Shown: positions 8,290 through 63,955 of the stretch, piece after piece
Position numbering within the stretch: the stretch's first letter is position 1
Layout: each line of letters opens with the position of its first letter
NCBI RefSeq assembly: GCF_024223415.1
Contig: NZ_CP100502.1
Source of the DNA: Escherichia coli
GTDB lineage: Bacteria > Pseudomonadota > Gammaproteobacteria > Enterobacterales > Enterobacteriaceae
DNA: 64,000 nt
Strand: one strand, 5' to 3'
Notes under the pieces: model-generated
What the model was told of the DNA's origin: nothing
Database searches by the model: none
Seen by the model: only the letters and a program-made list of their open reading frames with translations
Made by a program: the position numbers and the translations under genes

Positions 8290-8410
8290 TTTTGTACAGT
8301 CTATGCCTCGGGCATCCAAGCAGCAAGCGCGTTACGCCGTGGGTCGATGTTTGATGTTATGGAGCAGCAACGATGTTACGCAGCAGGGCAGTCGCCCTAA
8401 AACAAAGTTA
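8290..8410. other. attI1 recombination site region
   Basis: Sequence ending CCCTAAAACAAAGTTA at the cassette boundary upstream of dfrA1. Confidence 0.6.
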
Positions 8411-8427
8411 ACCTCTGAGGAAGAATT

Positions 8428-8901
8428 GTGAAACTATCACTAATGGTAGCTATATCGAAGAATGGAGTTATCGGGAATGGCCCTGATATTCCATGGAGTG
8501 CCAAAGGTGAACAGCTCCTGTTTAAAGCTATTACCTATAACCAATGGCTGTTGGTTGGACGCAAGACTTTTGAATCAATGGGAGCATTACCCAACCGAAA
8601 GTATGCGGTCGTAACACGTTCAAGTTTTACATCTGACAATGAGAACGTAGTGATCTTTCCATCAATTAAAGATGCTTTAACCAACCTAAAGAAAATAACG
8701 GATCATGTCATTGTTTCAGGTGGTGGGGAGATATACAAAAGCCTGATCGATCAAGTAGATACACTACATATATCTACAATAGACATCGAGCCGGAAGGTG
8801 ATGTTTACTTTCCTGAAATCCCCAGCAATTTTAGGCCAGTTTTTACCCAAGACTTCGCCTCTAACATAAATTATAGTTACCAAATCTGGCAAAAGGGTTA
8901 A
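8428..8901 (+). CDS. dfrA1: Trimethoprim-resistant dihydrofolate reductase DfrA1 (gene cassette)
   Basis: 157-aa ORF with GTG start, [52 protein letters not shown]. Confidence 0.9.
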
Positions 8902-62353: not shown

Positions 62354-62644
62354 GACAAAGTCTCCATTTCTGGAATTTAAATCAAACGGAAAGGTTAAAA
62401 ATTTATTTGCAGGCGATAAGAGCTAACCAGAGGAATTAGCCGTGCGATAAAAGGATTGTTGCAGATACGAAAGTCGTTAGAATAGCTGCGGGCGCTTGAG
62501 GCTGTATGCCGAAAGCGTTTTGTGGACGGTATACAGCAGAAAGCCCCTGGAGATTTTTTTATCAATCAACCAAGGGCTCTACTGTAATGCCTAGACAACA
62601 TTATAGTAGCCCGATAACCGCCGTAAGGCAATGGAGGGGCTATG

Positions 62645-62797
62645 ATGCCACAGCGAACGTTTTTAATGATGTTAATCGTCATCTGTGTGACGATTCTGTG
62701 TTTTGTCTGGATGGTGAGGGATTCGCTTTGCGGACTCCGGCTCCAGCAGGGAAACACAGTGCTTGTGGCAACGTTAGCCTACGAAGTTAAACGTTAA
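62645..62797 (+). CDS. pndA: Hok-family toxin PndA (type I toxin-antitoxin); overlapping pndC-like frame and antisense RNA expected upstream
   Basis: 50-aa MPQRTFLMMLIVICVTILCFVWMVRDSLCGLRLQQGNTVLVATLAYEVKR; below the size cutoff of the ORF track. Confidence 0.85.
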   Translation: MPQRTFLMMLIVICVTILCFVWMVRDSLCGLRLQQGNTVLVATLAYEVKR

Positions 62798-62868: not shown

Positions 62869-63120
62869 TCAATGAAGCGTATCCGGTATTGTTTCATTTT
62901 CCCTGAAGCCGATTAGCTCCAGCCGAATGCCTTTGCCATCGGGGGCCACGTTCTGCATTTCGCAGATACCACGTCGGGTCATGAGTGTGAAGGCTGTCAT
63001 TGCCAGCATGGCTAACGCGTTTTCCTCGCTTCCGCTGCGTTTCTCGAGAGCATCGGCAATTTCTTCTATGCTCCCCACCTGAAAGCAAGAGTCGAATTCT
63101 TTACTCCACTTTTCTGACAT
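62869..63120 (-). CDS. Hypothetical small protein
   Basis: 83-aa ORF. Confidence 0.4.
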   Translation of the reverse strand: MSEKWSKEFDSCFQVGSIEEIADALEKRSGSEENALAMLAMTAFTLMTRRGICEMQNVAPDGKGIRLELIGFRENETIPDTLH

Positions 63121-63606
63121 CGGATTTTCTCTCTGTATTTATGGGTAGTTATCGAACTGAATGTGCCAGTTTTTTCAGGAGACGGCAAAGTTGAGATGAT
63201 TGGTTCTGATTCAGAGCATGAGTTTCCTCGGTGTGACGGGCATGTCGGGCGGATTTTGAGAAACAACAGATGTAAAAAAACCGACTGGTGAGGTCGGTTT
63301 TTTTACTGTTCCGTTACAGAGTGGGTGGCCCTGACCGGAGGAAATCTCTTTTCAACTAACGTTCTTATAATAGCGAGCTGTTCATTTGATAGCAACCATC
63401 CTTATAATCCGCAGGTTAGCTCTGTCTGGCGACACTTCTGCCGTGATATCCATCGGGACTATGGATGCAAGATTTTAAGTCCTGGCTGAACAAACAGGTG
63501 GTGCTGTGTTCAGTGCTCTGGCAGGAGGAAGTCTCTTTTCAACTAACACTGAAAGTGCCGTTGTGACAGGCAATGTAAGAGTAAGCAACGGTGATTTCCT
63601 CCAGTG

Positions 63607-63714
63607 ATGGAGAAGCGGATGATTAATCTGTTAATCATCGTTCTCAGGGCAGTAGTTGCCGTTGCAAACGCGCTGATTGCTGTTCTGGAACTGATCCGGG
63701 AACTTGTCGACTGA
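63607..63714 (+). CDS. Candidate small hydrophobic peptide
   Basis: MEKRMINLLIIVLRAVVAVANALIAVLELIRELVD; followed by a hairpin at about 63735-63762; not in ORF track (<60 aa). Confidence 0.3.
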   Translation: MEKRMINLLIIVLRAVVAVANALIAVLELIRELVD

Positions 63715-63778
63715 TAAGCCTGGAAACGTAACTAAGGGCAGGGAGTTACCGCTTCCTGCCCTTTAACAAAAAGAGATC

Positions 63779-63955
63779 TCACGTTAAAAATTTGTACCCT
63801 TCTTTAACTTCCAGTGCCTGCTCCTTTGACTCAAACATCAGTCTTGTTTTCCCGGGAACGCCCCATGAAATGTATTCAACATCTATCCACCATTTTCCAT
63901 ATTCTTTATATGGCCCGGATATTACTTTTTTGACAAAGGCGTCTACCAGATTCAT
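63779..63955 (-). CDS. Candidate small protein convergent with the hydrophobic peptide ORF
   Basis: 58-aa MNLVDAFVKKVISGPYKEYGKWWIDVEYISWGVPGKTRLMFESKEQALEVKEGYKFLT with SD AAGGA; not in ORF track. Confidence 0.3.
   Translation of the reverse strand: MNLVDAFVKKVISGPYKEYGKWWIDVEYISWGVPGKTRLMFESKEQALEVKEGYKFLT

Follow-up and report, generated by a model that had tools for sequence, protein, structure and literature searches.

The dinQ gene of Escherichia coli K-12 is controlled by a switch in the 5' untranslated region (UTR) of its mRNA. SHAPE, mutagenesis, and in vitro translation established that four elements of this 5' UTR pair in mutually exclusive ways (PMC5066626). The primary transcript is held inert by pairing of element 1 with element 2 (1:2) and of element 3 with element 4 (3:4). 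Removal of element 1 by processing leads to pairing of elements 2 and 3 (2:3) and opens the Shine-Dalgarno (SD) sequence (PMC5066626). Binding of the small RNA (sRNA) AgrB over element 2 closes the SD anew and triggers cleavage by RNase III (PMC5066626).

The dql (dinQ-like) genes, including dqlB, were defined in 2016 by Kristiansen et al. on Enterobacteriaceae chromosomes and plasmids, and the dinQ switch was proposed to be common to them (PMC5066626). T1TAdb predicted antisense RNAs matching dql genes. In 2025, DqlB of the IncL plasmid pOXA-48 was reported to be toxic and to be neutralised by agrB, with an addiction/stability function (PMC12365149). The same function was reported in that year for the IncX3 plasmid pOXA-484, where DqlB is toxic and agrB rescues the cells (PMC12317039). 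The gene dqlB is found in 67.4% of IncI1 plasmids (PMC12365149). In the literature searched, there is no experiment on the IncI1 copy of dqlB, and the only specific mention of it is a predicted LexA site in plasmid pTF2.

The hok/sok systems resemble the locus described here, which occupies positions 63272-63770 of the 64-kb stretch of DNA analysed (the window). They are plasmid type I toxin-antitoxin modules with an inert full-length mRNA that is activated by processing and with an unstable antisense RNA. Hok, however, is ~50 aa long and belongs to an unrelated family, and Sok is encoded in cis, overlapping the mok leader. The hok mRNA is locked by a fold-back of its 5' and 3' ends and is activated by 3' trimming (PMC5066626), and none of these features applies at 63272-63770. 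The tisB/istR-1, zorO/orzO, and shoB/ohsC modules are comparable in having a divergent sRNA 5' of the toxin, a target in a long 5' UTR, and activation by 5' processing, but their peptides and RNA families are different.

The agrB/dqlB locus of plasmid R64

The window matches the IncI1 plasmid R64 (NC_005014.1) with 100% identity. The region is very probably the R64 module for the type I toxin-antitoxin pair agrB/dqlB, one of the plasmid representatives of the DinQ/AgrB family (Table 1). The module is flanked by trbA/pndCA on one side and by excA on the other. Positions 63619-63714 are the RefSeq CDS WP_001303310.1 on R64, named dqlB and described as 'DinQ-like type I toxin DqlB'. The R64 locus is a canonical and intact agrB/dqlB member, and its gene was named and annotated before this analysis. 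It holds no new biology: the family dates from 2016, the annotation on R64 is that of RefSeq, and homologues were validated in 2025.

Table 1. Features of the agrB/dqlB module of R64, in window positions
Feature	Position	Strand	Details
AgrB sRNA gene	63272..63360	-	~89 nt; +1 at 63360 or 63359
AgrB intrinsic terminator	63272..63306	-	14-bp stem, A7/T7 flanks, bidirectional form; terminator scan and inverted repeat
Repeat copy 1	63328..63360	-	AgrB 5' interaction region, complementary to dqlB mRNA
agrB promoter (predicted)	63367..63395	-	-35 TTGCTA (63395-63390), 17-nt spacer, -10 TATTAT (63372-63367); promoter scan
dqlB promoter (predicted)	63381..63408	+	-35 TTCATT, 16-nt spacer, perfect -10 TATAAT (63403-63408)
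Full-length dqlB mRNA (predicted)	63415..63770	+	~355 nt; both ends placed by homology to K-12 dinQ
Element 1	63431..63443	+	5' lock sequence; pairs with element 2 in full-length mRNA
Repeat copy 2	63515..63547	+	AgrB target in dqlB 5' UTR; homologous to the agrB site of dinQ, G88-A119
Element 2	63519..63533	+	holds SD-like GGAGGAAGUC; lies in AgrB target; alternative partners element 1, element 3, and AgrB
SL4 of the dinQ model, conserved stem-loop	63557..63592	+	minimum free energy (MFE) pairs and RNAalifold
Element 3, anti-SD GAUUUCCUCCA	63593..63603	+	partners: element 2 (SD open) or SD (SD closed)
Element 4, Shine-Dalgarno	63608..63612	+	GGAG 63609-63612, ATG 6 nt downstream
dqlB CDS	63619..63714	+	31 aa, MINLLIIVLRAVVAVANALIAVLELIRELVD; ATG 63619; NF041473.1 and RefSeq
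3' hairpin, putative terminator of dqlB mRNA	63734..63763	+	12-bp stem, then UUUAAC

The peptide matches NCBIfam NF041473.1, the equivalog model for DqlB, at 66.3 bits (cutoff 35). The match covers residues 6-36 of a 36-aa ORF and the whole 31-position profile. Against the DinQ model NF041472, the R64 peptide scores 19.9 bits, under the cutoff of 30; assignment to dinQ proper was rejected on this score and on the lack of a LexA operator over the promoter. No Pfam model matches the DqlB peptide or the two flanking small ORFs. An initial annotation of the window had proposed a type I toxin-like hydrophobic peptide of the hok type. The toxin is borne out by the DqlB match and by RefSeq, so a genuine type I toxin locus was recognisable from raw sequence alone, but the family is dinQ/agrB (dql), with no Hok match in NCBIfam or Pfam. 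The anatomy also required correction: one repeat copy belongs to the antitoxin gene, the anti-SD works in the opposite sense, and a product of 31 aa is the most likely.

The antitoxin gene lies on the minus strand, where Rfam model RF02891 (AgrB) matches 63272-63359 over its full length (model 1-84) with 55.3 bits, against a gathering score of 40, and E=8e-8. The predicted fold of AgrB consists of a single-stranded 5' tail, an internal stem, and the terminator. Its putative promoter is a match to the sigma-70-like consensus, and its -10 is separated by 6 nt from the predicted +1. The search for an antisense promoter that had been suggested earlier is answered by this promoter-like site, which the scan found from 63395 to 63367 on the minus strand. 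The Rfam search across the whole 64-kb window returned a single AgrB match, and an agrA paralogue is absent, a difference from K-12 dinQ. AgrB is unlisted in the plasmid gene tables searched, which contain no RNA genes. Membership in zorO/orzO was rejected because the OrzO match is below the Rfam gathering score: RF02083 (OrzO-P) reaches only 33.6 bits against a gathering score of 60, and its alignment is mostly terminator. There are no IstR or OhsC matches.

The direct repeat connects the sRNA to the toxin mRNA. The 24-bp element described in the initial annotation, pattern GGAGGAARTCTCTTTTCAACTAAC or GGAGGAA(A/G)TCTCTTTTCAACTAAC, is exact at 63337-63360 and 63524-63547. It occurs nowhere else in the 64-kb window with up to 3 mismatches allowed, and the chance expectation for the 24-mer is 0.00 (100 shuffles). 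The repeat is longer than was stated, at 33 nt, with copies that are 88% identical and 187 bp apart from start to start. The AgrB model match around copy 1, with its own promoter and terminator, thus identifies this copy as the 5' end of a divergent antitoxin sRNA, and the two copies are not, as had been supposed, upstream elements of one transcript. AgrB pairs with copy 2 at 32 of 33 positions (29 Watson-Crick, 3 G.U, and 1 A.G mismatch opposite 63523), and the duplex has a predicted energy of -55.8 to -56.8 kcal/mol. The copies differ at 4 positions, three of which are transitions that give G.U wobbles. The target ends 62 nt upstream of the SD. The need for the 5' end of AgrB to complement a site in the toxin 5' UTR explains the 33-bp direct repeat. 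K-12 dinQ-agrAB has the same design, with a divergent trans-encoded sRNA and ~33 nt of 5' complementarity to the 5' UTR (PMC3567139, PMC5066626).

The predicted dqlB and agrB promoters overlap back to back. The dqlB -10 aligns with the (G)TATAAT/TATACT of all homologues and with the -10 of K-12 dinQ. The -35 (TTCATT) is weak, and a simple promoter scan gave no call for the dqlB promoter. The 5' end of the mRNA, GUUAGCUCUG, is homologous to the +1 of K-12 dinQ (numbering: PMC5066626). In K-12, the +1 is the G of GTTAGCTCTG, and the same motif in R64 begins at 63415, six bases past TATAAT; the R64 start would fall there by analogy.

The LexA repression of dinQ itself invites the reading that the R64 module is mainly an SOS- or stress-inducible membrane toxin rather than a constitutive plasmid-addiction module. 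A LexA-like site, CTG-N10-CAG, is present at 63482-63497 (20-mer 63480-63499), and the identical 20-mer is listed as a putative dqlB LexA site of the IncI1 plasmid pTF2, with a heterology index of 11.64 (PMC12211044). This is the sole CTG-N10-CAG at the locus, however, and it lies inside the 5' UTR, ~66-85 nt downstream of the predicted +1, in a stem-loop whose flanks are conserved for RNA reasons. The site departs from the 20-nt consensus at 9 positions, compared with 5 for the genuine dinQ box. The dinQ box overlaps its promoter, whereas no LexA box lies over the R64 promoter. In addition, DqlB was undetected in the proteome of the pTF2 study (PMC12211044), and the pOXA-48 and pOXA-484 homologues act as addiction/stability modules. 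A mainly SOS-inducible module is accordingly improbable. That the site adds SOS control is a possibility, but such control through an internal site is doubtful, given its position within the predicted transcript and a conserved stem-loop and the lack of a box over the promoter.

The dqlB product most likely has 31 residues, not 35. Longer frames also exist, one of 36 aa from GTG 63604 to 63714 and one of 35 aa from ATG 63607, the latter being the ORF of the initial annotation. The 35/36-aa products were rejected because the upstream ATG lies across the SD, lacks one of its own, and is not conserved (CTGGAG in locus L013). In every homologue, the peptide begins with M(I/V)NLL and its start codon is preceded by GGAG at 6 nt. 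The 31-aa form is favoured because this start and its correctly spaced SD are conserved and the upstream ATG is not; it is also the annotated one. The dinQ gene, too, was once annotated with over-long ORFs before a downstream start proved real. DinQ of K-12 and DqlB of R64 are both small single-helix peptides with an ALIA(L/V)LELIR core in common, but R64 dqlB starts with ATG and encodes 31 aa, whereas K-12 dinQ starts with GTG and encodes 27 aa.

Downstream of the ORF, the hairpin that had been read as a terminator is a conserved structure. Its stem co-varies and its TTTAA(C/T) tail is kept in all homologues, including K-12 dinQ. A simple terminator scan made no call at this hairpin because TTTAAC stands in place of a long T run.

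Elements and predicted folds of the dqlB 5' UTR

In the predicted folds, all four switch elements are present in R64, with mutually exclusive 1:2, 2:3, and 3:4 pairing and an SD hairpin. R64 shares with K-12 dinQ the four-element switch, the 5' GUUAGC, SL2, SL4, and the 3' hairpin. The predicted duplex energies are -19.0 kcal/mol for 1:2, -18.9 kcal/mol for 2:3, and -8.0 kcal/mol for 3:4. The SD hairpin joins 63599-63603 to 63608-63612 across a GUGA loop (CUCCA-GUGA-UGGAG). Element 1 and the a/a' contact (63415-19 with 63543-47) together form the S1 lock.

The 2:3 duplex is contained in the MFE folds. In the unconstrained MFE fold of the full-length RNA, it is element 1 itself that pairs with the SD and closes it (1:4, -12.7 kcal/mol), and 2:3 is formed as well. 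This arrangement differs from the published 1:2 and 3:4, but the gap is only 1.5 kcal/mol: forcing the 5' GUUAG:CUAAC contact gives the complete published S1 lock, 1:2 with 3:4, at -137.4 kcal/mol versus -138.9 kcal/mol for the MFE. When 63515-63547 was masked in constrained folding as a mimic of AgrB, full-length and processed RNA alike formed the SD hairpin. For the full-length RNA, the SD has a predicted probability of ~0.05-0.08 of being unpaired; for the processed RNA the value is a modest ~0.2-0.3, and it falls to ~0 once the AgrB site is masked. These folds are consistent with the switch.

The sequence GATTTCCTCC (63593-63602) is the exact reverse complement of GGAGGAAATC in copy 1, as had been noted, and it also pairs with GGAGGAAGTC in copy 2 with one G.U included. 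It had been taken for the ribosome-binding site, sequestered by long-range pairing with the repeat. It is the anti-SD, however, and the true SD is GGAG at 63609-63612. The long-range pairing is real and control is at the RNA level, but its role is the opposite of the one proposed, because 2:3 pairing keeps the anti-SD off the SD and the SD is sequestered when that pairing is prevented.

A mechanism for R64 can be proposed by analogy with dinQ and the plasmid homologues. The two overlapping, back-to-back promoters would produce the untranslated AgrB RNA leftward and the dqlB mRNA rightward, the latter encoding a putative 31-aa single-helix membrane toxin. In the full-length mRNA, element 1 and the 5' GUUAG would hold element 2, and element 3 would fold onto the SD, leaving the mRNA inert. 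Processing of the 5' end, placed near 63473 by alignment, would allow element 2 to capture the anti-SD and the SD to open. AgrB bound to 63515-63547 would displace 2:3 so that the SD hairpin re-forms, and the AgrB:mRNA duplex would probably be cut by RNase III. Upon plasmid loss, the unstable AgrB would disappear first, and the stable toxin mRNA would be translated, resulting in post-segregational killing. Toxicity and a role of the R64 copy in plasmid addiction would thus match those of its homologues.

Conservation among homologous loci

The comparison was made up of K-12 dinQ-agrA-agrB and 17 plasmid loci from IncI/K/B/O, IncX3/4/5, IncL/M, and IncF replicons. Locus L016 was left out of the comparisons, its 5' UTR having been replaced by agrB through a deletion between the repeats. 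The alignment is collinear in all loci and includes the -10 box, the 5'-GUUAGC, two stem-loops, the AgrB target, the anti-SD/SD hairpin, the ORF, the 3' hairpin, and UUUAA(C/U). Rfam places AgrB beside dqlB in 10 of 11 plasmid loci. In the pOXA-48-type loci, Rfam misses AgrB; the logic of the repeat finds it, with the same terminator and a spacing of 188 bp (187 bp in R64).

The RNAalifold consensus contains SL4 and the SD hairpin with compensatory changes. Examples of the pair counts in SL4 are UA:10 CG:4 UG:2 and UA:12 GC:2 AU:1 CG:1. An SD hairpin is predicted in 16/16 loci, as is a 1:2 duplex, at -17 to -25 kcal/mol. RNAalifold applied to the alignment from element 2 to the start codon returned no 2:3 duplex, because 2:3 excludes 3:4 and the MAFFT register is off by 1 nt in some sequences. 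For this reason, 2:3 was assessed by alignment-free matrices of cognate versus non-cognate duplexes. In 14/16 loci, element 2 pairs best with its own cognate element 3; the mean energy is -18.7 kcal/mol for cognate pairs versus -13.8 kcal/mol for non-cognate pairs. The complementarities and their co-variation are seen directly in the sequences: elements 2 and 3 change jointly, being GGAGGAAGUC/GAUUUCCUCC in R64, GGAGUGAGAGA/UUCUCACUCC in dinQ, GGAGAAGAAC/GUUCUUUCUCC in L003, and GGAGUGGGAAC/GUUCCUGCUC in the pOXA-48-type loci. In each row of the cross-pairing matrix, the cognate AgrB:target duplex ranks as the strongest or close to it.

Decayed versions of the module occur elsewhere, through the deletion between repeats in L016 and a truncated ORF in L012, and the R64 copy is known here from sequence. 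It could be imagined as another inactive relic, whose toxin is unexpressed or harmless although homology persists. That the R64 copy is such a relic is very unlikely, as all of its parts are intact (both promoters, the AgrB fold, the 32/33 pairing, the four elements, the SD spacing, the ORF, and the 3' hairpin), and the region is held at ≥99% identity by 748 plasmid records. The pairings co-vary between lineages, which indicates continued selection.

Next to no weight falls on a hok-like mRNA that holds both repeat copies and sequesters its ribosome-binding site by pairing of the repeat with GATTTCCTCC. The complementarity is real, and long-range pairing does lock the full-length mRNAs of type I toxins such as dinQ. 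Copy 1, however, precedes the conserved -10 and +1 of the toxin mRNA and is inside the minus-strand sRNA gene, GATTTCCTCC is CU-rich as befits an anti-SD with the SD at GGAG 63609-12, predicted 2:3 pairing goes with a more open SD and its removal closes the SD, and no Hok model matches. The Rfam sok match (134 bits, 62490-62647) belongs to the neighbouring pndCA, next door at 62490-62797, which is a true hok/sok-type module. With pndCA beside agrB/dqlB, R64-type IncI1 plasmids have two type I addiction modules next to each other, and this has a bearing on plasmid-curing strategies.

Specificity of AgrB and its targets

The DqlB-agrB modules of pOXA-48 and pOXA-484 have, like the agrB/dqlB module of R64, a divergent AgrB whose 5' end repeats the target sequence at a distance of ~187-188 bp upstream, a 31-aa peptide, an SD hairpin, a 3' hairpin, and the RefSeq name dqlB. 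The R64 DqlB is 80.6% identical to the peptides of L009 (pOXA-48-type) and L008 (IncX3). The pOXA-48 and pOXA-484 modules differ from that of R64 in plasmid backbone and neighbours and in their AgrB/target and element 2/element 3 sequences, which places them in separate specificity classes. For the AgrB of K-12, predicted pairing with the R64 target is weak, at -32.5 kcal/mol versus -55.8 kcal/mol with the AgrB of R64.

A speculative reading, less likely than not, is that plasmid agrB/dqlB modules form discrete RNA specificity classes that are able to cross-talk. The predicted duplex of R64 AgrB is stronger with the dqlB mRNAs of L005 and L006, from other I-complex plasmids (-65.1 kcal/mol), than with the R64 mRNA itself (-55.8 kcal/mol). 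Predicted pairing is poor with the chromosomal AgrB and with other classes. If this held in vivo, the AgrB of a resident plasmid could disarm the addiction module of a competitor (anti-addiction), and inter-plasmid conflict would drive the diversification of classes. Plasmids with two tandem modules carry two different classes.

AgrB pairing and tandem modules

The AgrB antitoxin RNA of R64 (interaction sequence 63328-63360) has a predicted duplex energy of -65.1 kcal/mol with the dqlB targets of two homologous plasmid loci, L005 and L006, vs -55.8 kcal/mol with its own target. The weaker predicted pairing with its own target is due to a single A.G mismatch opposite 63523. These modelled duplexes hint at possible cross-neutralisation among related plasmids.

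Some I-complex and IncF plasmids carry a tandem pair of agrB/dqlB modules. The interaction sequences differ between the paired AgrB copies of L006 and L012, the loci in which both copies were seen, and the copies of each locus therefore fall into different predicted specificity classes.

Recognition and decay of the module

AgrB of the pOXA-48-type IncL/M loci (L009, L014, and L015), which are experimentally validated, gave no match to the Rfam AgrB model at E<=0.1. It is readily found as a direct repeat that precedes the target by 188 bp and is accompanied by a minus-strand terminator. The seed of the Rfam AgrB family appears too narrow. In R64, the OrzO-P antitoxin RNA model gives a sub-threshold match (33.6 bits vs 60; 63274-63339, minus strand), mostly from a near-identical terminator hairpin with the loop CUCACCAG. 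AgrB and OrzO may have a terminator module or an origin in common.

In L016, agrB is joined directly to dqlB sequence 3' of the target, as would be expected if the two 33-bp repeats had recombined and deleted the intervening DNA. This locus lacks the dqlB promoter along with most of the 5' UTR, and its dqlB coding sequence is annotated at just 84 nt. From its sequence, L016 looks like a disarmed module.

Features of R64 around agrB/dqlB

A second type I toxin-antitoxin module, pndCA of the hok/sok family, lies 0.5 kb left of agrB/dqlB. It contains a sok RNA (134 bits in Rfam) and a 50-aa Hok/Gef-family ORF (62645-62797). R64 thus has two unrelated type I addiction modules, adjacent to each other in the trbA-excA interval. 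Two small conserved hypothetical ORFs accompany agrB/dqlB in I-complex plasmids, and neither matched a Pfam or NCBIfam family. Further away, an Rfam match indicates a class 1 integron region.

The LexA-like site of R64 has exactly the sequence reported as a putative LexA site for dqlB on the IncI1 plasmid pTF2 (HI 11.64; PMC12211044). It is located at +66 to +85, within the predicted 5' UTR, and belongs to a conserved stem-loop, not the promoter.

Features of R64 (window coordinates) and of homologous plasmid loci (L numbers, own coordinates)
Feature	Location	Strand	Remarks
AAC_AAD_leader / attI site	window 8361-8432		Rfam 70.6 bits vs 56
pndCA	window 62490-62797		Rfam sok + Hok/Gef-family ORF
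83-aa ORF	window 62869-63120	minus	flanks agrB/dqlB
LexA-like CTG-N10-CAG	window 63480-63499		sequence pattern
58-aa ORF	window 63779-63955	minus	flanks agrB/dqlB
Tandem agrB/dqlB	L006 299-386 + 1028-1115		
Tandem agrB/dqlB	L007 1-67 + 656-751		
Tandem agrB/dqlB	L012 505-592 + 1217-1304		
AgrB direct repeat	L009 553-588		pOXA-48-type
AgrB direct repeat	L014 550-585		pOXA-48-type
AgrB direct repeat	L015 550-585		pOXA-48-type
agrB-dqlB fusion	L016 596-824		NZ_CP141238.1, IncK2/Z
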